Sequence record: LR597647
DNA from: Escherichia phage rV5_ev147
Length of the DNA stretch: 64,000 nt
Strand: one strand, 5' to 3'
The notes below the pieces were generated by a model, which was not told where the DNA came from, did no database searches, and saw only the letters and a list, made by a program, of their open reading frames with translations. Positions within the stretch are counted from its first letter, which is position 1; the number at the start of each line of letters is the position of its first letter. Position numbers and translations under genes: made by a program. This document shows, in pieces, positions 32,424 through 61,479 of the stretch.

Positions 32424-32475
32424 GACATAATGGTGACATAACTGACACGATTGACATAATTGACATGCCTGACTG
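32424..32475. repeat. iteron array: 5-6 direct copies of TGACA(T/C) at 9-11 bp spacing
   Basis: copies at 32424, 32435, 32444, 32452, 32461, 32470. Confidence 0.5.
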
Positions 32476-32520
32476 TTCACGCTCTCATTATTCCCGCCCT
32501 TACTATTCACGCCCTTTACT

Positions 32521-32610
32521 GCTTACATTCTTGATAGTCTACATGCTTAATGGTTTACATGACTAATAGTTTACATAGCTAACTGTTTACGCATAAACTG
32601 TTTACACAGA
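32521..32610. repeat. iteron array: about 6 copies of (G)TTTAC(A/G) at 15-16 bp spacing
   Basis: copies near 32523, 32540, 32555, 32570, 32586, 32601. Confidence 0.5.
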
Positions 32611-32618
32611 TATGATAA

Positions 32619-32910
32619 GCCATGCCATTCGTTTGCATGATAACAATAACGATCAACAACAATAAAGACTGAAATGATAACGTTGTTGATTTGACTGACT
32701 AACAATTAACAGGCTAATAATCTATGACATAATATAAAAGCAGGGCAACTATTAGCAGATCTATAGTTGCCTTGCTTGTTATGTCATGATTAACTAAATA
32801 CAAGGCAACTATGATCTGATTAATAGTTTGCAGACAAACTATCACGGGGGTGATGGTTACTGCTTTTATATTATGTCGCGACTCCGTCGCGCCATGCCAT
32901 TCGTTTGCAT
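32619..32910. repeat. 252-bp palindrome-rich segment flanked by perfect 20-bp direct repeats GCCATGCCATTCGTTTGCAT
   Basis: DR at 32619-32638 and 32891-32910; nested inverted repeats inside. Confidence 0.5.
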
Positions 32911-33571
32911 AGTTGCCTTATTGTTACAGATAAAATAATTGTATTGTTAATTATTTCTTATCTTTCTATTAGTCATCTAATGATTCCAGTTAGTATAGTA
33001 ACGTACAGTAAACATTAGACGACTAAAGATTTCTCTGATTATGATAACTTGCCGTGACAATTTCAGACTGTTTACGAAAAATGTTGACACCTGAGCTGAT
33101 TTATGTTATGCAATTTAAACGAATAATTATTTTATGCAGGTATTGACTATTCTGTTATTCTATGGTCGGAATAAATACTTAGCAGGCTATAGAATGGTGA
33201 GCGTACGTAAATTCTGAGATCTGTCGGCTATAGTTATACTCGATTTTTCACGTAGAACACGCTTTTTGGTTTGTGTAAGTGTATGACTTATAAAGATTTT
33301 TAGTTGTTGACAAGATATTGAAGATGTGCATCAGGTTAAATTTTGTGCAATAGCTGCATTACGTGCAATTTTGGAAGGAAAACGGGTAAAAATAGCACCG
33401 CTACCACACAATGAAAGGTTATGCAATAGTTATTTTACATGTATATTTGTACAGTGTGTGGGATTGATGGCTCGTCAATTATTCCACTTGCCAGGTAGGG
33501 CCGTTTATGGTAGGGAGGAAGAGCAGACAAAAAGAAAGGGACCTAAGCCCCTTGATAATTCAGTTAAAAAA

Positions 33572-34733: not shown

Positions 34734-34945
34734 GGCGTTTTCCTCTCTTCCGGTTGTTGTGTGGGCGCTTTTGCCCCCTTCGAGATAAATGCTACCCCAC
34801 CACCTGGCAGATGTCAACGGTTTTTATAGTTTTTATATAGCAGGCACACCCGGTGATTGTCTCCCCCCGTCGCCAGGTGCCTGCCGTGAAACAAGTATAA
34901 CAAAAAACAGGACCATTGCAAGCCCTGTTTTGTAGTTTATAAGGA

Positions 34946-35992: not shown

Positions 35993-36333
35993 TTTGTTTT
36001 CCTCTTCTTGTTCCAGGTGGCGGACCATTCCACCGCCTTATGTATTATGCTTTGTAAGATGGTTGTTTGTTTTCAAACTATTTTAACGATAATCATCGTA
36101 CGCTTTATTAACCTGGCGAATATAACATTCAAAAGCCAGATCAATAGATTTATATTCACGGATATACTCACCATAGGAAACCACATACATTTCTATAGCT
36201 TCCTCATATGCGAGGAGAATAGAATCCAAGCCTACGATCTCAGTCTTTGCAATAATAGCCATGATTTTTATCCTCTTTGTGGTTGGTGGGGCTTGCCCCT
36301 TTGATTTATATACTACAGTCTTATATGGTCATG

Positions 36334-36567
36334 TCAACTATTTTCAAAAAATTTTTCTGCTGTGATATTTTTCCCGGTAGGGTTCGCTACTTTCAAAATT
36401 TTATCATGCACTGGACGCCCAAAAGAATAAGCGCCGTACACAGTACACCAATAATCGCCGTCAGGCTGTACTATTACCGCCGCATAGGGTACGCCTTTTT
36501 CGTTTTTGCTGACAAAATAGATCACGTTGCCATTAATAGCCTCGGCGCGTTTAATTTGTTCCATCAT
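36334..36567 (-). CDS. hypothetical protein
   Basis: RBS aagagagg; GC hairpin upstream. Confidence 0.45.
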   Translation of the reverse strand: MMEQIKRAEAINGNVIYFVSKNEKGVPYAAVIVQPDGDYWCTVYGAYSFGRPVHDKILKVANPTGKNITAEKFFENS

Positions 36568-36622
36568 GATGATTTGCCTCTCTTTATTTTCATAATTGGG
36601 GGCCTTTTCGGCCCCGCCAGGT

Positions 36623-37114: not shown

Positions 37115-37465
37115 TTATTTTGCATTCTTTCCTATATTGCCGCTACGGTACCAGCGTTTACGGTGAAAATGGTAATAATCACCATCGGCATTAAACATCA
37201 GATGATTTTCAATAACCAGCTTACGAAGGTGGGCCGGATCTTGTTCCATTCTTGCCAGATTCTGGCGGCTGTTACGTAAGCGGATAAATTCCATATTCAG
37301 GCCGTTGATTGCAGCATGGATGTCAAAGTAACCACCTTTGAGACGTTCACGCATGGAGTTAAGCTCAACACAATATACAGATTTCTCACAAATCAAGGTA
37401 TTAGCCAGGGCGCGGACCTGGGCAAGGGGGTTAAGCTCATTAAGGTAATATAGTTTTACTTTCAT
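37115..37465 (-). CDS. hypothetical protein
   Basis: ORF. Confidence 0.45.
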   Translation of the reverse strand: MKVKLYYLNELNPLAQVRALANTLICEKSVYCVELNSMRERLKGGYFDIHAAINGLNMEFIRLRNSRQNLARMEQDPAHLRKLVIENHLMFNADGDYYHFHRKRWYRSGNIGKNAK

Positions 37466-37482
37466 AAAATCACCTGCTGAAA

Positions 37483-37788: not shown

Positions 37789-37826
37789 TACTCCTTTTTG
37801 CACTGATTATTTTAACAGGGTTTAAA

Positions 37827-37870
37827 TTTACTTTATTGATGGCCCTGGAGTCAAGGCCATCTAAAAATAA
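37827..37870 (-). promoter_or_regulatory. conserved 44-bp element, copy 1 (palindrome GATGGCC-n10-GGCCATC with embedded TTGACT)
   Basis: identical to copies at 41566 and 42187; lies between stop of upstream gene and RBS of next. Confidence 0.5.
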
Positions 37871-37873
37871 ATT

Positions 37874-38074
37874 TTACAGGCCTACAATCTCTTTAATTCG
37901 TTTTACTGCTGCCTCAGCGCCTTGAGGGTAAAAATTATGGTAACCAATCACGCGAGTGATACTAATCGCCGTTTGATGATCTTCATAATCACCTTTAAAG
38001 ATTTCTTGACCGTCAATCAGCACGGCAATTTTTTCTTCTTTTTTGAAGTTAATAACGCGGATATTGTTGCTCAT
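37874..38074 (-). CDS. hypothetical protein
   Basis: RBS aaaggagaaac; 5' UTR hairpin GGGGAG-aca-CTCCCC. Confidence 0.45.
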   Translation of the reverse strand: MSNNIRVINFKKEEKIAVLIDGQEIFKGDYEDHQTAISITRVIGYHNFYPQGAEAAVKRIKEIVGL

Positions 38075-38169
38075 TTTGTTTCTCCTTTTGGAACTTTGTC
38101 TATGCGGTGGGGAGTGTCTCCCCGTTGATTGTTATTATCCATATTCTGGATCGGATTGCAACACTCAGG

Positions 38170-38210
38170 GAGAAAAAAATTTGAAAAGTTAGGCCCCAGG
38201 GATCGGGGCC
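38170..38210 (-). terminator. rho-independent terminator (minus strand)
   Basis: GGCCCC-gatccct-GGGGCC followed by T-runs. Confidence 0.55.
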
Positions 38211-38925: not shown

Positions 38926-38989
38926 TCTATGTACCTCTTTTGCAGTTCTGTTTAACAATAAGGCGGCAAATATGCCGCCTGTTACCTGA

Positions 38990-39370: not shown

Positions 39371-39460
39371 GATGTTTTCCTCTTTGTTTTGTGGGGGGCA
39401 AGTCATCTCGCCCCTTGAGTTTTTAATATAGCAGGTTTTTAGATTATTGCAACACTTTAT

Positions 39461-40084
39461 TTATGAAAAACTCATCTCCCCATATTCATCCACATCAAAC
39501 CGCCAATCATTGGCTTCAATAAGGCCGATCAGGTTTTCGGTAGTAAACTGTTCAAGATAGGCCTCCTCCAGGTCTACGTAAACCTTGCGGGATAGCTCCC
39601 GTACCGTCTCGGTGATCAGCTCTTCCAGCTCTTCAACTTTGTCCTCTTGCTTGGTGGTCAGGTCTAGCCAATTAGTATCGATGCACCCTCCTATTGTGTT
39701 TTCGTGATGATAATGGCTAAACGGGATACGTTCAACACTGGCTGATAACTCGCCATCGTGCATTGTGCCGAACAAGTGACGAATTGATCGGAACTTGGTC
39801 AGGGCCTTTACTTTACGCAAGAATTTTTCTAAATCCACGTTTTCAGCACTGATTGACGCGCCATCGCCTTGACACCAAAAGCCGGACCAACGTACTTCGG
39901 TATCTTCAAGGCCGTACTCTGGAAAGACATATTCTTTATAGTGTTCAATTACACTTTCTGCAAAAAAATTATCCCCGCTGTGTTCTTCTCTTTCGCGGAC
40001 CATTTCAATAGCTTTTTCTTTTTGTTCGTCGGTCAGCACGTCGAAAGATAAATTGTAACCTGTGGTAATGTTAACGGTGGTCAT
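39461..40084 (-). CDS. hypothetical acidic protein
   Basis: promoter, hairpin and RBS upstream. Confidence 0.45.
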   Translation of the reverse strand: MTTVNITTGYNLSFDVLTDEQKEKAIEMVREREEHSGDNFFAESVIEHYKEYVFPEYGLEDTEVRWSGFWCQGDGASISAENVDLEKFLRKVKALTKFRSIRHLFGTMHDGELSASVERIPFSHYHHENTIGGCIDTNWLDLTTKQEDKVEELEELITETVRELSRKVYVDLEEAYLEQFTTENLIGLIEANDWRFDVDEYGEMSFS

Positions 40085-40141
40085 GATATTTTCTCCTATT
40101 TTCTTTGTTAGTGGCGGGAAGTTTTCCCGCCTGTGTGTTTA

Positions 40142-40169
40142 AGTATACTTATCGAGATTTACTTGTCAA
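40142..40169 (-). promoter_or_regulatory. sigma70-consensus promoter (TTGACA-16-TATACT) with downstream 5' UTR hairpin
   Basis: hexamers at 40164-40169 and 40142-40147 (minus); hairpin GGCGGGAA-gttt-TCCCGCC at 40113-40131. Confidence 0.6.
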
Positions 40170-40419
40170 CACTATTTTTTAAATTATTGTGGCGTAAAAT
40201 GTTCAAGATCTCTTCAACGTCATCAACACGGCGGCAATTTTTAAACGCTACCAGTTGCCCCAGTATTTTAATCACTGGACGGCCTTGCCAGTGCCCTTGG
40301 AGAAAGCGAGCTTTAACTTTATCGGTGGAACTATCACGCCACCAAATGGCCTTGTTGTTGCAGTAGTAAAAATTATTCAGGACAACATCAACTTTATCAA
40401 AATTTTTTAATTTACGCAT
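40159..40419 (-). CDS. hypothetical basic protein
   Basis: ORF. Confidence 0.4.
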   Translation of the reverse strand: MRKLKNFDKVDVVLNNFYYCNNKAIWWRDSSTDKVKARFLQGHWQGRPVIKILGQLVAFKNCRRVDDVEEILNILRHNNLKNSVDK

Positions 40420-40451
40420 GGCGTTTACTCCTTTCTCTCTTTGATGTGGTT

Positions 40452-40479
40452 AGTATAGCTAACCTGTTTAAGATGTCAA
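40452..40479 (-). promoter_or_regulatory. sigma70-consensus promoter (TTGACA-16-TATACT)
   Basis: hexamers; RBS aaaggag before ATG 40419. Confidence 0.55.
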
Positions 40480-40621
40480 GCTTTAAATAAAATCACTGTC
40501 AATGATATTTTTAACGCCATAAAACGGCCCTAAGCGATGTTTTCAGGTTAAAGGGGGGGCGATTGCATAGGTGGGGCCTTTTTGGCGCTTACAGGGCCAA
40601 CCGGGGGCGCTATTCGTAGGA

Positions 40622-40659
40622 TAGAAATAAAAAGCCCCGCACAATGGCGGGGCGTTGGT
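40622..40659 (-). terminator. rho-independent terminator (minus strand)
   Basis: CGCCCCGC-cattgt-GCGGGGC followed by TTTTTATTT. Confidence 0.6.
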
Positions 40660-40661
40660 TG

Positions 40662-40859
40662 TTATTTGCCTTTGTGGCGGTATCGTTCCGCCTGTCGTTC
40701 ACGTTCCAAAAGCAGGCCCGGTAATTTGCGATCATAATGATTCCGCCAGATCTTCCCAAATCTTTTTGGCTTATTCAGTTTATTGTTGCGCTGGCGGCGT
40801 TCCGGCAGCTCTTCGGAAGCATGAGATCGCTTTACAATCTTCTCAAAATTAATCTTCAT
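40662..40859 (-). CDS. hypothetical basic protein
   Basis: RBS aggggggaa before ATG at 40859. Confidence 0.4.
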   Translation of the reverse strand: MKINFEKIVKRSHASEELPERRQRNNKLNKPKRFGKIWRNHYDRKLPGLLLERERQAERYRHKGK

Positions 40860-40913
40860 ATATTCCCCCCTTGCTAACTTCAATATTGGCCTGAATAGCC
40901 CGGATACGGCGCT

Positions 40914-41201
40914 TTATAACTTCCTGATCTGTGTGATCGTATCCCAAAAGTCTACGATTTTTGCGCCTCCAGCCTTTAGGCGGTATAGTGTTTCTTGCAT
41001 CTTGTAAGCCGGGATCGGTCGCGGTGTTACCTGGTCGCCCTTCTCATTCTTGTACTTGATAATATAGTCTTCATTGTCGTTGAATACCCAAAACGGGTAT
41101 TCTGTAAGGGCGTTGCTATCTTTTTCGTTTTTAGATTGGATCTTGTTTACAATTAAAGCCGTAGCAATAGCGCCAATAATAAAACTTGCCCCGCTGATCA
41201 T
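40914..41201 (-). CDS. small protein with N-terminal TM segment
   Basis: RBS aaaggagaaag before ATG at 41201. Confidence 0.45.
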   Translation of the reverse strand: MISGASFIIGAIATALIVNKIQSKNEKDSNALTEYPFWVFNDNEDYIIKYKNEKGDQVTPRPIPAYKMQETLYRLKAGGAKIVDFWDTITQIRKL

Positions 41202-41276
41202 GTACTTTCTCCTTTCATTGTATTGATAAACTATCTTTATAGATGGCCCTGCTACCAGGACCACCGAAAAAACAGC

Positions 41277-41522
41277 TTATTTGACGATACCGACAAAACA
41301 GATCCCGCCTTCCCCTATATAGGCAATATCGGTAATTTTATAATTTGTCAAGATCCGCGTGTTCAGATCATTAATAAAATCGGTCATCGCGTTGGTGTAG
41401 TTGTCTTCCGTGTCTAAGGCATAATCCCAGGTGTACACCTTTTTACGTCCGAAGCCTTTTACCATGATACGGGCGCTTTTGGTGTTGGTAGGGGCATAAT
41501 ATTTGGTGATTAGTGCTGCCAT
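41277..41522 (-). CDS. hypothetical protein
   Basis: RBS aggagtt; copy 2 of 44-bp element upstream. Confidence 0.45.
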   Translation of the reverse strand: MAALITKYYAPTNTKSARIMVKGFGRKKVYTWDYALDTEDNYTNAMTDFINDLNTRILTNYKITDIAYIGEGGICFVGIVK

Positions 41523-41565
41523 GGTTTTAACTCCTATGCATTAGTTCAGTGTTAACAGTATAAAG

Positions 41566-41609
41566 TTTACTTTATTGATGGCCCTGGAGTCAAGGCCATC
41601 TAAAAATAA
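41566..41609 (-). promoter_or_regulatory. conserved 44-bp element, copy 2
   Basis: TTGACT-18-TAAACT reading on minus strand, palindrome GATGGCC/GGCCATC. Confidence 0.5.
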
Positions 41610-41611
41610 TC

Positions 41612-41953
41612 TTACTCGTTTTCTTCCAGTTCTGCAAGCTCTTCTTTTGCTTCTTCTAACTCTGTCTGTAATTCCTGGTATTCTTCATCGTCCTCAATAT
41701 CCAGGCTGTCGATGTAGTCGCTAAATCCGCAGCGGTAAGCGATAGGATCTAGCTCCTTGAGGATACGCGACGGAAGAAAAGAAATGTTTCCGATCATAAT
41801 TTCGCCGTAGATCTCGTCTAACCATTCATCATAGTTTTCGTCGTACTTGTCCTCGTCGATTTCAAAGTTATCGATCTTGTTCTCAAGGTCTGCGATCTGT
41901 TTTTTCAGTGCGGCGATCTGAATAGCTTTTTCTGCGGCGGTCATAGTAGTCAT
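41612..41953 (-). CDS. acidic coiled-coil protein
   Basis: RBS aaaggagaaaac; promoter and hairpin upstream. Confidence 0.45.
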   Translation of the reverse strand: MTTMTAAEKAIQIAALKKQIADLENKIDNFEIDEDKYDENYDEWLDEIYGEIMIGNISFLPSRILKELDPIAYRCGFSDYIDSLDIEDDEEYQELQTELEEAKEELAELEENE

Positions 41954-42004
41954 GGTGTTTTCTCCTTTTGTGTGCTCTGGGAAGTTTTCCCGTTTACGTG
42001 TTTA

Positions 42005-42032
42005 AGTATATCAATCTAAGTTAGCTTGTCAA
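42005..42032 (-). promoter_or_regulatory. sigma70-consensus promoter (TTGACA-16-TATACT)
   Basis: hexamers; hairpin GGGAA-gtt-TTCCC downstream. Confidence 0.6.
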
Positions 42033-42152
42033 TTAAAAATTTAAGAAAAATTTTGCAAAACTGTTAGCGCTACTCATTAACATTTGCGCCAGGATGTAAC
42101 CGACAACGCAGGCGATAATAGTTACCTTTGTGTATTGGCGTGTAGTGCTCAT
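42024..42152 (-). CDS. 42-aa membrane peptide
   Basis: downstream of 44-bp element copy 3; hydrophobic core. Confidence 0.3.
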
Positions 42153-42186
42153 CTTAAAGCCCCCTTTTTCGCTTAGCTGAGATTAA

Positions 42187-42230
42187 TTTACTTTATTGAT
42201 GGCCCTGGAGTCAAGGCCATCTAAAAATAA
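42187..42230 (-). promoter_or_regulatory. conserved 44-bp element, copy 3
   Basis: same 44-mer. Confidence 0.5.
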
Positions 42231-42232
42231 AT

Positions 42233-42637
42233 TTAGTAAGTTTTAAGTACTTTACCGTCTAACCTGTCAAGCTGGATCTCAATAGCTGCAGAGAATCTAT
42301 TGTACACCACATCGCCCATAGAATCCAACCAGTCTATGACATTATACACTTGCTCTTTGTTCTTGCAGGTCCGGATCCGTTTCATGATGTAAGCCGGATC
42401 AATATTGGTACTCTCGTTGGTGCTCCCCTGTACCTGGTTTGCCGTATTAGTTACATCTTTAATGGCCTTTACCACCACCTGGAATGGCTTTAAGGTGCCT
42501 TTTGCGTTCATCTCACGCGCTTTTGCGGCGCGGTTGTTATATGTTACACAACGGCGGCAAATGTTGATCAAATGCATGTCAATAATTTTTTCATCGTTTG
42601 CCAGTTCATTCATGATGCGGCGTACGTTCTTATTCAT
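42233..42637 (-). CDS. hypothetical protein
   Basis: promoter, hairpin and RBS upstream. Confidence 0.45.
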   Translation of the reverse strand: MNKNVRRIMNELANDEKIIDMHLINICRRCVTYNNRAAKAREMNAKGTLKPFQVVVKAIKDVTNTANQVQGSTNESTNIDPAYIMKRIRTCKNKEQVYNVIDWLDSMGDVVYNRFSAAIEIQLDRLDGKVLKTY

Positions 42638-42685
42638 GATCTTTTTCCTTTGTGTTGGCGGGAAACATTCCCGCCTTTTGTGACT

Positions 42686-42714
42686 AGTTTACTTGAATTT
42701 TGCAGCGTGTCAAC
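42686..42714 (-). promoter_or_regulatory. sigma70-like promoter (TTGACA-17-TAAACT) with 5' UTR hairpin
   Basis: hairpin GGCGGGAA-tgtt-TCCCGCC at 42653-42675. Confidence 0.6.
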
Positions 42715-43639: not shown

Positions 43640-44165
43640 TTTGTACCTCCTCTTCAATTGTTACCTATCCTATAGCATAGGCCCACCAGGTTTGCAAGCC
43701 TTCATTCTCTCCTACCTGGTCAGTTAGGTCCTGCCAGGCTGGCCCCGCCAGGTTGCAGCGGTCAGCGCATCAGGTTAGAAAAATTTTTTTGAAAAGTGTT
43801 GACAGCGGCCCCGCCAGGTGGCACAATATACCTATCGAAAGGACGGCAGGCACCGGTGACGGGGAGACAACCACCGGGGATGGGCGCTGCATAAAATGAG
43901 AACGGTTATCATTATCGTCTAAAAATTTATGCAAAAACTTCTTGCTTTCTTTGTCCTGTGTGTTACTATAATAACAAGCCGGGGCAGTAGGGGCCGGGAG
44001 ACAATCACCGGGGGTGCCCGTTATTCTGCAAACGAGAATGATTATCATTCAAAATTCTAAATGAGAACTTTTCTCATTTCATAAATTTAGTTAGCATGCT
44101 AATTACCTACCGTGACAATTCTATATAAAATAATACCTCCTAAAATATTTCCATATACAAATTTT

Positions 44166-44365
44166 AAAAATCCATTTCCGAAAACGAAAAATCGCTTTCG
44201 TTCCCAAAAATTTTAGACCTGGTGCTGGACCAATTTCAAGAAAATCCGATTCAGAAAACGAAAAACAGATCGAGTACTGAGAAGTTTATCGAGAAAAATT
44301 TTCAGAAAATTCAATCTTTGAAACGAAAAACAGATCGAGTACCTAGAAAGCTGCACCGCAATTTC
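44166..44365. repeat. three degenerate tandem repeats of about 65 bp (AAAAT-C-ATT...GAAAACGAAAAA...ATTTCAAG)
   Basis: units starting near 44166, 44232, 44296; GAAAACGAAAAACAGATCGAGTAC duplicated. Confidence 0.45.
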
Positions 44366-44654
44366 AAGATGGTGGTTAGATTATTACCATAAAAGGTCAA
44401 GGGTGAGTGGGAAAGTTCTGGTAGAGGGGTGTGAGCATACGCGGAAAATCTAGAATGGTAGTCCGGAATATGGTGCAAACGATAGGATGAGTGGTTCAGC
44501 TCGTCGTGCCTACTCTGAAAAAATCCATTTTAGTTTTCGATCCATTTTCTGATTTTCTAACAATTTTAAAATATCTGGCCGGGTGAAATATCAAAAGGAG
44601 GAAATCCATTTTAGAAATCCTCCTTATACTTGATATGTCAGAAATTTTCAAGTA

Positions 44655-44984
44655 TCAGCTATCTTTGTTTTTAGGTTTATACATGCGGAGAGGTATAGTC
44701 TTTGTAACATTCCATTTACTCAACCCTTCCCAGCTCCAGTTGTGGGCATGGTATCCGGTTATGCATGCACTGCTGGAGTGATCGTAAGCATAAGAGAACG
44801 CTAAGCGCACCAGGTGAGGCCAGTCTTTCCACGGTTGTGGTCCGTAAGCTTTTCTCCAACACCGACACAAACTAAATGTCTCAAGAATAGGCAGGATAAC
44901 AAATCCATACACCGCCACCAGAATAGCCAGCGCAATGATTGTCAGGAATACATACCCTGCAGTTGAAACGATGATCTCTGTCAT
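44655..44984 (-). CDS. membrane protein
   Basis: N-terminal TM VFLTIIALAILVAVYGFVILPIL. Confidence 0.45.
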   Translation of the reverse strand: MTEIIVSTAGYVFLTIIALAILVAVYGFVILPILETFSLCRCWRKAYGPQPWKDWPHLVRLAFSYAYDHSSSACITGYHAHNWSWEGLSKWNVTKTIPLRMYKPKNKDS

Positions 44985-45968: not shown

Positions 45969-46031
45969 AATACATCACTCTCTGTTAGTTTATGCGTATA
46001 TTATACACTGCAGTTTTCAGATGTCAACCTC

Positions 46032-48309: not shown

Positions 48310-48371
48310 TTTTCAGATCTCCTTATACAAAAATGCCCCACCCTTTCGGGCAGGGCTATGTTAACTAGATG

Positions 48372-57736: not shown

Positions 57737-58520
57737 TAATTCTGCTCCTTACTACAGGCTCGTTTGCCAGGAATACGGCTTTTGCCCAGCCACGTGGTGT
57801 GAGGCTTCGAATCATCTTCGTTCTTGCACTCTTTCCACCCAGCTTGGCGTGTTGCATGGAATACCCGCTAACCACGTCAACTATTTGCGGGACAGGTTTT
57901 GTGGCTGGGATTATAAATCCATTACCTATCCAGCCGCAAGTTATTTTTGGATAGGCATCACGTGGAGCTATAAATTCAGGAAACCATGGGTTTACATCAT
58001 CTTCCGGTAAATACCCGCCATAATCCGAAGGGTGAAAACGGTAATCAGGTTTGCGCCACAGTGTGGACATAACACCCACAGGATTCTCTACATGCCACGG
58101 GCAATCGTAAATCTCTCCCAGCTCTTCCGCAACCCGAGCATCCTTTACAGCATTAATTTGGATCATGGGGTCCTTAGCCAGCTTTTTCTTAAAATGTGCA
58201 GCACCTGATACCGCTAAATGCGTGCACGGAGGAAATGCAAGAATAAAATCTGGAGCCGGATACATGCAAAAAGTTTCCTGAGGGAACCACGGGTCAATCC
58301 AATAGTCCACATAGTGAATGTTGGGATGATCGGTGATCACCTCTGCATAACTGCCGTGATCAGCGCCTTCTGCATTAAAGCACAGGCACAGGTACCCAGC
58401 TTTTGCCCAGTCAATGACTGCACCACCAGACCCGTCAAATAGACTCCACACAACACCTTTGTGGTAGTGTTCTTTGTAGATAAATTTCAATTTGCTGTCT
58501 CCTAATGCAAAAAGCCCCAC
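57726..58520 (-). CDS. DNA cytosine-5 methyltransferase (compact)
   Basis: motif I LFDGSGG, motif IV FPPCTHLAVSG (PC dyad), motif VI HVENPVG. Confidence 0.65.
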   Translation of the reverse strand: MGLFALGDSKLKFIYKEHYHKGVVWSLFDGSGGAVIDWAKAGYLCLCFNAEGADHGSYAEVITDHPNIHYVDYWIDPWFPQETFCMYPAPDFILAFPPCTHLAVSGAAHFKKKLAKDPMIQINAVKDARVAEELGEIYDCPWHVENPVGVMSTLWRKPDYRFHPSDYGGYLPEDDVNPWFPEFIAPRDAYPKITCGWIGNGFIIPATKPVPQIVDVVSGYSMQHAKLGGKSARTKMIRSLTPRGWAKAVFLANEPVVRSRINGK

Positions 58521-58541
58521 CCTTTCGGGCAGGGCCTAGTG

Positions 58542-61076: not shown

Positions 61077-61137
61077 CGTTTGGTGCTCTCCTTAGTTTTT
61101 TGTGGGGAGGAGGCCTCCCCTTTATACTCACATCTTA

Positions 61138-61479
61138 CTACTCAAGGTCTTCAGAGTCAAGCTCAAAAAGAATCAAACTGTGCATGCCTGCAGATAGATT
61201 AACACACCCTGCAACAATAAGGGTCTGATAGTAAGGTTCAGCACCCTCAATGTCTTCGTTAAAATCCACAACAAGGTAGTCACCTTTGTTAAAGGTGTAT
61301 TTGTCCGATGTAAACGCAAAACCTGCCCAGTCCCCTACTGCAGGGTCTTTATCAGTCACCTTTGTTAACAGTAGATCTTTTTCACGGGATCTTTTAGTAA
61401 AATCGTGAATCACAACATCCTTCTCTTCAGGAGTTGGATTGCCACACACGTAGTTAACTATATTTCTCCACAAACTCAT
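61138..61479 (-). CDS. hypothetical protein
   Basis: ATGA overlap with helicase gene. Confidence 0.45.
   Translation of the reverse strand: MSLWRNIVNYVCGNPTPEEKDVVIHDFTKRSREKDLLLTKVTDKDPAVGDWAGFAFTSDKYTFNKGDYLVVDFNEDIEGAEPYYQTLIVAGCVNLSAGMHSLILFELDSEDLE

Follow-up and report, generated by a model that had tools for sequence, protein, structure and literature searches.

PeSL-like promoter/stem-loop cassettes in the early region of the rV5-like phage rV5_ev147, with a hairpin placed at the predicted mRNA 5′ end

Cassettes known as promoter-early stem-loops (PeSLs) have been described in the T4-like phages RB49/phi1, PST/T4 and nt-1/KVP40 (Arbiol et al., 2010, PMC2839356; Comeau et al., 2014, PMC4122927). 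Those of RB49/phi1 consist of an AT-rich flank, a sigma-70 consensus promoter, a polyG/polyC stem-loop and a Shine-Dalgarno sequence with its ATG, and in one subclass the stem-loop is located downstream of the −10 hexamer (PMC2839356). PeSLs are concentrated among ORFans, where they serve as recombination sites (PMC2839356, PMC4122927), and the formation of mini-circles by pairs of cassettes is one of their described traits. Here, we analyzed four minus-strand promoter units (40142-40169, 40452-40479, 42005-42032 and 42686-42713) in a 64,000-nucleotide stretch of Escherichia phage rV5_ev147 (record LR597647), hereafter the window, whose coordinates are used throughout. On balance, we think it probable that these units are early cassettes of the PeSL type, in which the hairpin most likely acts as a stabilizer or insulator of the mRNA 5′ end and whose recurrence also provides patches of homology.

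Like PeSLs, the units combine an upstream stop codon, an AT-rich flank, a sigma-70 promoter, a G(n)-loop-C(n) stem-loop, a Shine-Dalgarno sequence and an ATG, and they are repeated among the ORFans of an early hyperplastic region of variable gene content. The stable stem-loop typical of PeSLs is present in two of the four units (−14.6 kcal/mol) and at five further promoters of the window. They differ from PeSLs in that their host phage belongs to the Vequintavirinae and is not T4-like, and in that the stem-loop occupies one fixed position, 10-12 nt past the −10 hexamer. Moreover, clean indel junctions fall here in −35 hexamers and in a neighboring repeat, D1, rather than in the GC-hairpin cassette itself, and the U-tract expected of the terminator proposed for PeSLs is absent. 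No sequence similarity to the RB49 cassettes or to T4-like phages was detected.

By sequence comparison, the window is from an rV5-like coliphage (Vequintavirus). In BLAST, 3.8 kb around the four units showed 99.8% identity to Escherichia phage rV5_ev156, the final 64 kb of whose record correspond approximately to the window, and more than 100 other Vequintavirus genomes were 90-97% identical to the same 3.8-kb region. All genes between about 33.5 and 64 kb are on the minus strand, with no plus-strand genes there. The four units lie within a block of small genes equivalent to rV5 ORF185-195, and all nine open reading frames (ORFs) flanking them belong to PHROG families of unknown function. The region is a minus-strand early block of small ORFan genes, and the gene content of this block differs between relatives.

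The initial annotation had reported near-consensus promoters at the four sites, and these were found at all of them, with an exact TTGACA-N16-TATACT in three and a single mismatch (TAAACT) at 42686-42713. They match the consensus at 10-11 of 12 positions, have 16-nt spacers and AT-rich upstream flanks (AATTTAAAAAATAGTG, CTTAAATTTTTAA, AATAAAAATTG), and rank among the best sigma-70 matches of the region. When up to two mismatches to TTGACA-N16-TATACT were allowed, the window contained 18 matches compared to 7.84 expected, a number reached by none of 100 shuffles. The same four sites were predicted independently in 2013 as P185, P186, P192 and P194 (Table S4 of the rV5 genome paper, PMC3606486), and two of them, P186 and P192, are annotated in the rV5 GenBank record; the four promoters themselves are already published predictions. 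Their features are as follows:

40142-40169, minus strand: promoter TTGACA-16-TATACT, rV5 P185, with its −35 hexamer within the final codons of the upstream gene
40452-40479, minus strand: promoter TTGACA-16-TATACT, rV5 P186, without a downstream hairpin
42005-42032, minus strand: promoter TTGACA-16-TATACT, rV5 P192, in a paralogue of the unit at 40169 (78% identity over 54 nt, repeat family D5)
42686-42713, minus strand: promoter TTGACA-16-TAAACT, rV5 P194, identified by its consensus match and by rV5 Table S4

The consensus hexamers, the 16-nt spacers, the flanks and the placement before small early genes, together with the presence of the same sites in rV5 Table S4, uphold the promoter reading at the level of sequence, and we infer with good support that the four units are early promoters for the host RNA polymerase.

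A GC stem-loop had also been assigned to each of these promoters. This was true of two units, in which the hairpin is perfect, or of three if a remnant is counted, but not of the unit at 40452-40479. The sequence GGCGGGAA-N3-TTCCCGCC matched the window exactly twice, compared to 0.11 matches expected. Both perfect hairpins have 8 bp and a 3-nt loop and start 10 nt past the −10 hexamer. Folding energies, with z scores relative to shuffled sequences, were:

40113-40131, minus strand: hairpin GGCGGGAA-aac-TTCCCGCC, −14.6 kcal/mol, z = −5.4
42657-42675, minus strand: hairpin GGCGGGAA-tgt-TTCCCGCC, −14.6 kcal/mol, z = −3.7
41979-41991, minus strand: degenerate 5-bp hairpin GGGAA-aac-TTCCC, −5.9 kcal/mol, z = −1.2

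Similarly, the strong ribosome-binding site (RBS) claimed for every unit is present in three of them, as AGGAG or AAGGAG located 7-9 nt before the ATG, whereas the unit at 42713 carries the weaker AAGGAAAAAG. Three leaders were delimited, the first of which precedes the 207-amino acid (aa) ORF that is the equivalent of rV5 ORF185, a member of a PHROG family of unknown function:

40085-40112, minus strand: CA/A-rich unstructured leader with AGGAG, preceding the ATG at 40084 of the 207-aa ORF
40420-40451, minus strand: 32-nt leader of P186 with AAGGAG
42638-42656, minus strand: CA-rich leader AACACAAAGGAAAAAGATC, preceding the ATG at 42637

Intergenic reading and classification of GC hairpins revealed that at least five further early promoters share this layout, namely a sigma-70-like promoter and, after about 10 A-rich nucleotides, a G-run/C-run hairpin, then a leader rich in C and A but poor in G, and a Shine-Dalgarno sequence:

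39395-39452, minus strand: TTGCAA-16-TATATT, 10 nt, hairpin GGGGCGAG-atga-CTTGCCCC (39395-39414, −13.8 kcal/mol)
38109-38161, minus strand: TTGCAA-16-GATAAT, 10 nt, hairpin GGGGAG-aca-CTCCCC (38109-38123, −10.5 kcal/mol)
36288-36337, minus strand: TTGACA-16-TAGTAT (rV5 P174), 10 nt, hairpin GGGGC-aa-GCCCC
34763-34817, minus strand: TTGACA-17-TAGCAT (rV5 P168), imperfect hairpin GGGGGC-aaaa-GCGCCC (−10.8 kcal/mol)
61104-61160, minus strand: TTGACT-17-TAAGAT, 11 nt, hairpin GGGGAGG-cct-CCTCCCC (−13.8 kcal/mol)

The stems of these units differ (GGCGGGAA, GGGGCGAG, GGGGAG, GGGGAGG and GGGGC), yet they share their position, since the hairpin starts 10-12 nt past the −10 hexamer at every such unit of the window. 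To quantify this, sites with at least 10 of 12 consensus matches were taken as promoter-like, and offsets from −30 to +60 were scanned for GC-rich hairpins. On the minus strand of the window, a hairpin started 9-12 nt past the −10 hexamer at 5 of 30 promoter-like sites and at no other offset; given a background of 69 such hairpins in 64 kb, about 0.13 were expected (Poisson, p ~3e-7). The distance from the hairpin to the ATG was much more variable, ranging from 19 to about 37 nt. A fixed distance to the −10 hexamer combined with a variable distance to the start codon indicates that the hairpin is tied to the promoter and not to the ATG. Apart from the unit that lacks a hairpin and the earlier publication of the promoters, the initial annotation had missed that the layout is general in the early region and resembles that of PeSLs.

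A decayed cassette was also observed at 36029-36082, where TTGAAA...AAAGCA is followed by a hairpin, GGTGGA-atgg-TCCGCC, with the start codon inside its loop. An rV5-like IMG/VR contig carries in its place an intact TTGACA-16-TAAAGT with GCGGGAA-tac-TTCCCGC.

The position of the hairpin bears on the possibility that it terminates or attenuates transcription arriving from upstream, each gene being then expressed mainly from its own promoter. Such a function was proposed by the PeSL authors for their stem-loops, one of which decreased lacZ expression as strongly as rrnB T1 (PMC2839356). It would also suit an intergenic site about 35 nt past the upstream stop codon and a stable stem of −14.6 kcal/mol, as well as the promoterless hairpins of like style at 36615 and 35617. 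The GenBank record of phage HdK5 labels the counterpart of 42657-42675, on the gene strand, as "putative transcriptional terminator, −14.00". However, no U-tract follows the stem in any copy, counterpart or relative examined, which argues against a terminator role and leads us to expect no more than weak termination. On the sense strand, ACCAAC, AACACA or ACTAAC comes after the stem, and ACTAACAAAG, AACACAAAGG and AGAGCACACA were recorded as 3′ flanks. Canonical terminators with a hairpin and a U-tract already end units in the same region, at 40634-40653, at about 38192-38210 and at 38961-38980, the first of them being:

40634-40653, minus strand: canonical intrinsic terminator GCCCCGC-cattgt-GCGGGGC followed by TTTTTATTTC

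In addition, a terminator would not need a fixed distance of 10-12 nt from a −10 hexamer. The hairpin thus has the shortness, GC-richness and intergenic location of Rho-independent terminators, including a database label, but differs from them in having no sense U-tract and only a weak T-rich antisense tail. Judging from these features, the promoter-proximal hairpin does not look like an intrinsic terminator of sense transcription, and we regard attenuation of upstream transcription as unlikely.

The antisense tail raises a related possibility, in which the hairpin and the A-rich initial transcribed region form a plus-strand intrinsic terminator that halts antisense transcripts before they reach the promoter. 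A terminator scan called the perfect hairpins on the plus strand only, as GGCGGGAAGTTTTCCCGCC followed by TGTGTGTTTA and GGCGGGAAACATTCCCGCC followed by TTTTGTGACT, and T-rich plus-strand tails occur at several other units (e.g., TTGAGTTTTT, TTTGATTTAT). These tails are nevertheless poorer than those of the real terminators of this phage, and an A-rich stretch just past the −10 hexamer is expected of a strong promoter anyway. Between 33.5 and 64 kb, the plus strand has no genes and one promoter-like site at 10/12, and the counts of G.U and A.C pairs described below favor neither strand. We consider this explanation very unlikely.

As a separate observation on terminators, the hairpin GCCCTGCCCGAAAGGGTGGGGC with a T-run occurs twice on the minus strand, at 58509-58535 and 48330-48356 (family D15; rV5 t213, t232). 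At 58.5 kb, a TTGACA-17-TACAAT promoter (rV5 P231) precedes the hairpin by about 20 nt, so that a promoter is followed there directly by a true terminator.

Conservation was analyzed in relatives and in other phages. The unit at 42713 was found in 12 of 13 Vequintavirus relatives, with the stem unchanged except for a 1-nt deletion beside the loop in three of them. In this unit, 1 of 16 stem columns was variable compared to 21 of 51 elsewhere (Fisher p = 0.013, or p = 0.0004 when Klebsiella phage FKP3 was included), and all three loop positions varied, the loop being TGT, ACA or AACA. Beyond Vequintavirus, FKP3 (Justusliebigvirus) carries three promoters with GCGGGAA-type hairpins within 8 kb. 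One of these cassettes shares 77% identity with the 42713 unit across 90 nt, although by BLASTP its neighboring genes on both sides are unrelated. In the first 50 kb of the FKP3 minus strand, a hairpin was located 9-14 nt past the −10 hexamer at 5 of 21 promoter-like sites. The GCGGGAA/TTCCCGC hairpin also follows sigma-70 promoters beside unrelated genes in phi92-like phages and in phages of phAPEC8 size, and a scan of IMG/VR for a promoter with GCGGGAA-N3-TTCCCGC matched only contigs of 97-153 kb and rV5-like contigs, all with different loops. In the Avunavirus phages Av-05 and TH18, the counterpart of the 40169 unit has GGCG-atacac-CGCC at 11 nt past the −10 hexamer.

Hairpin loops vary freely (AAC, TGT, ACA, AACA, TGA, TAG, TTG, TGG and TAC). 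When the IMG/VR scan was relaxed so that only the core GGGAA/TTCCC was fixed, 55 stretches representing 50 distinct sites were obtained. The next outer position was Watson-Crick paired in 31 of the 50, in comparison with 11 of 50 when the partner was slid by 3, and the outer stem sequences differed (GC/GC, GAC/GTC, GTG/CAC, AAGC/GCTT). A Shine-Dalgarno-like sequence and a start codon were present within 60 nt in 33 of the 50 sites. As read from these alignments, the data support selection for a structure more than they do a fixed sequence bound by a protein.

This comparison is relevant to a DNA operator, i.e., an inverted repeat at about +4 to +22 through which a dimeric phage or host repressor would shut the early promoters later in infection. 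A perfect 8-3-8 palindrome located where repressors commonly block RNA polymerase would suit such a site, as would the core GCGGGAA/TTCCCGC, which Vequintavirus, Justusliebigvirus (FKP3) and contigs of about 149-153 kb share unchanged despite their varying loops and flanks. Nevertheless, unrelated stems of other length and spacing occupy the same offset (GGGGAG-aca-CTCCCC, GGGGCGAG-atga-CTTGCCCC, GGCG-atacac-CGCC), the outer stem pairs covary instead of keeping their sequence, three phages have fixed a 1-nt deletion by which the spacing is altered, and degenerate copies persist. An operator is consequently very unlikely in our judgment.

The hairpin might also have no role in expression, being carried along with a mobile promoter module or persisting only as homology for recombination or as a repeat prone to form cruciforms. 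The 42713 loop is suggestive in this respect: most phages have TGT, UViG_3300010279 has the reverse complement ACA, and three phages whose stem is 1 bp shorter have AACA. The switch between TGT and ACA resembles the outcome of a small inversion inside the inverted repeat, and this would mean that the DNA arms sometimes pair or recombine. The same idea would account for the location of the cassette beside unrelated genes in another subfamily, for the weak or absent hairpin in two of the four units, and for a conversion patch in phage ECP26 (see below). On the other hand, the 42713 stem is significantly more conserved than the spacer, the initial transcribed region, the loop and the leader, independent stems occur at the same offset in many promoters, and outer pairs covary. 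A hairpin without any expression role therefore seems quite improbable to us.

Two further searches were made around the cassettes. Relatives of the ORF185 equivalent in IMG/VR comprised only two close ones and six distant homologues (24-31% identity) without the cassette upstream. Rfam, run at a permissive threshold over 37-45 kb, gave one sub-threshold chance hit located outside the four units. We also observed that the 113-aa ORF at 41612-41953, downstream of the 42032 unit, has a clear motif in common with a 118-aa protein of FKP3 (LDPIAYRCGFSDY compared to LDPTAYRCGKSDY), both with acidic tails; the pair was not reported by BLASTP, and the FKP3 gene (L013 2429-2785) has no promoter/hairpin cassette.

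The homology-patch part of the reading can be examined at the points where small genes have been gained or lost. Several of these points coincide with D1, a 50-nt repeat whose fold, at −22 to −24.5 kcal/mol (z about −5.7 to −5.9), comprises a pair of stacked 10-bp helices and an internal loop, or with a −35 hexamer:

41229-41278, minus strand: divergent D1 copy, an intercistronic hairpin of 2 x 10 bp, one boundary of a 335-nt polymorphism (246-nt gene)
41564-41613, minus strand: D1 copy, boundary of both the 335-nt and a 622-nt gene-cassette polymorphism
42185-42234, minus strand: D1 copy, the other boundary of the 622-nt polymorphism
37825-37874, minus strand: D1 copy
40497-40502, minus strand: orphan TTGACA hexamer, 17 nt upstream of the P186 −35 hexamer, point of insertion or loss in relatives

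ECP26, ime and one IMG/VR contig lack approximately 41613-42186, which comprises a 342-nt gene, the 42032 promoter unit and a 120-nt gene, while 241Ecol014PP lacks the 246-nt gene. Both junctions are located exactly inside D1 copies, and the missing lengths (622 and 335 nt) equal the spacings of the repeats. An apparent 1.6-kb insertion in BLAST hits of three pieces was discarded as an artefact of D1 repeat joining. Between the tandem TTGACA hexamers at P186, UViG_3300010279 contains a 540-nt block with two or three small ORFs, S127 BCL3 has an extra 171-nt gene, and others show deletions of 23 or 11 nt. Taken at face value, these alignments have shown a homology-patch role for the neighboring D1 repeat and for the −35 hexamers. 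As regards exchange at the GC-hairpin cassette, the evidence consists only of its conservation beside unrelated genes in FKP3 and of a 6-nt patch in the P185 of ECP26 (ACAGGC to GTAAAC), which is identical to the 42032 paralogue and is, from its sequence, a gene conversion between two hairpin cassettes.

D1 is also of interest with respect to RNase III, for which the initial annotation had suggested the GC hairpin as a site. The enzyme requires roughly two helical turns. The 8-bp stem, which showed no extension on folding, falls short of a threshold of about 20 bp of (interrupted) double-stranded RNA, and the GC hairpin was rejected as a substrate; this suggestion is unlikely to hold. The comparison with the RNase III sites of the T7 early region, also intercistronic hairpins of an early polycistronic region, fails for the same 8-bp stem, whereas D1 (10 + 10 bp with an internal loop) is of the right size but is a separate element. 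In an alignment of 20 distinct D1 copies from 14 genomes, 96.5% of the cells were paired, four pairs changed on both sides, and every one-sided change in the inner helix yielded G.U on the minus-strand RNA. D1 is present in about three copies per genome and was found only in Vequintavirus. It lacks a U-tract, and copies of the divergent subtype do not keep its −35-like loop, TTGACT. Its size (about 20 bp) and covariation suggest that D1 could suit RNase III-type intercistronic processing better than the GC hairpin does.

Two other types of phage hairpin were considered and rejected. Among antitermination RNAs, boxB has a conserved loop and put consists of two large stem-loops of about 70 nt; boxB (lambda nut) and HK022 put were discarded given the variable loops, the single 19-nt hairpin and the absence of any Rfam match. 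Hairpin promoters of the N4 type, considered on account of the 3-nt loops, depend on a virion RNA polymerase peculiar to N4-like phages; the hairpins described here lie downstream of ordinary sigma-70 promoters.

The closest functional analogy for the GC hairpin is the 5′ stem-loop of certain mRNAs. The T7 gene 10 leader, with its 5′ stem-loop, is one parallel. Stabilization by a 5′ stem-loop is established for Escherichia coli mRNAs (Emory 1992, Bouvet and Belasco 1992, Arnold 1998 and Bricker 1999, as listed in PMC3997798). The units share with ompA and papA a stable hairpin a few nucleotides from the predicted 5′ end, an unstructured leader and a strong RBS; unlike ompA and papA, the 5′ end is predicted here from the −10 hexamer only, and the predicted overhang of 2-5 nt reaches or exceeds the limit for protection.

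We propose that the host RNA polymerase would fire these promoters immediately after infection, as expected from their consensus. Initiation about 7 nt past the −10 hexamer would then place the hairpin at approximately +3 to +5, as the first structure of the mRNA and with 2-5 unpaired 5′ nucleotides, an overhang calculated by assuming a start at 7 ± 1 nt. A 5′-terminal stem-loop of this kind would hinder 5′-end-dependent decay (RppH and 5′ sensing by RNase E), as in ompA and papA, and may keep the leader and the RBS unstructured; in read-through transcripts it would be intercistronic. The recurrent cassettes could at the same time provide short patches of homology for gene exchange, conversion, gain and loss. 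A role as mRNA stabilizer or insulator, proposed by analogy, is compatible with the position of the hairpin. An action in read-through transcripts as an obstacle to RNase E scanning was rejected, since simple stem-loops are bypassed (PMC9943677).

Several results weigh against this proposal. The hairpin is not found by folding in the 40452-40479 unit (−0.6 kcal/mol), and the energy of the 41979-41991 remnant is indistinguishable from that of shuffled sequence, which makes the P192 hairpin weak. Many early promoters of the window, among them those at 46027, 51323 and 52523, also have no hairpin. Its absence at P186, its weakness at P192 and its absence at many early promoters indicate that the hairpin is not essential. 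Conversely, G-run hairpins of the same style precede an RBS without a detectable promoter at 36615 and 35617, and these point to a function independent of the transcript 5′ end. The 5′-terminal position itself derives from the −10 hexamer alone, and we found no transcription-start or transcriptome data for rV5-like phages in the literature. By the criteria reportedly published in Emory 1992, protection with 2-5 unpaired 5′ nucleotides is borderline. Because RNase E passes simple stem-loops, which do not block its scanning (PMC9943677), an internal copy would not protect downstream RNA in that way.

Conservation is also less uniform than the 42713 unit alone would suggest. In the 40169 unit, the stem shows no greater conservation than the flanks (variable columns, 4 of 16 compared to 19 of 60), and its counterparts tolerate an uncompensated mismatch, a C-to-T change giving G.U and the loss of two outer pairs. 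No compensatory double substitutions were seen between true counterparts of the GC hairpin, its covariation being observed only among paralogues and in other phages. In the strand test on the stem extensions of the IMG/VR set, G.U and A.C pairs numbered 4 and 4 in one comparison and 3 and 1 in the other; given this lack of asymmetry, the strand on which the GC hairpin folds is not assignable. As for gene loss, rV5 lacks window positions 37126-37468 through a gene-internal deletion that is not at any cassette. Weighed together with the preceding evidence, these points leave PeSL-type cassettes with a 5′-end stabilizer or insulator as the reading that we favor.

Some additional features of the window were recorded. 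The ORF at 40914-41201 (minus strand, 95 aa) covers only positions 1-87 of 117 of its PHROG profile, and rV5_ev156 has an annotated 117-aa gene in its place, hence the window seems to carry a truncating 1-nt indel. Window coordinates above about 41000 are offset by 1 relative to the rV5_ev156 record. The 606-nt non-coding sequence at 44050-44655 contains three direct repeats of about 52 nt (44158-44348, family D2) and several hairpins, and it may be the "non-coding" box of the rV5 genome map. At the switch of gene strand from plus to minus, a 1.1-kb non-coding region (32467-33571) holds long inverted repeats as well as recurring motifs, GTAAAC/AGTTTAC among them, and might serve as an origin of replication or as a region of bidirectional termination.

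A bolder interpretation, which we consider doubtful and put forward only as a speculation, is that the promoter with its 5′ GC hairpin (GCGGGAA-N3-TTCCCGC core) is a cassette exchanged horizontally across Vequintavirinae and Stephanstirmvirinae, with a variant in a contig of 121Q-size jumbo phage. The hairpin would be specifically recognized, one example being a factor of the phage or its host through which early transcripts are protected or marked. In combination with D1, whose covarying copies may be RNase III sites, it would constitute a modular early-mRNA architecture driving gene shuffling outside T4-like phages.

What is new here is that rV5-like and phi92-like phages carry promoter/stem-loop cassettes resembling the PeSLs of T4-like phages, with the hairpin fixed at the predicted 5′ end of the transcript, and that repeated regulatory motifs mark the points where small early genes are gained or lost. 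If confirmed, these cassettes would provide a guide for annotation, at least one GenBank record now calling the hairpin a terminator, and a compact natural part (strong promoter, 5′ hairpin and unstructured leader) for engineering these therapeutic phages. They would also extend modular shuffling of the PeSL type beyond the T4-like phages.

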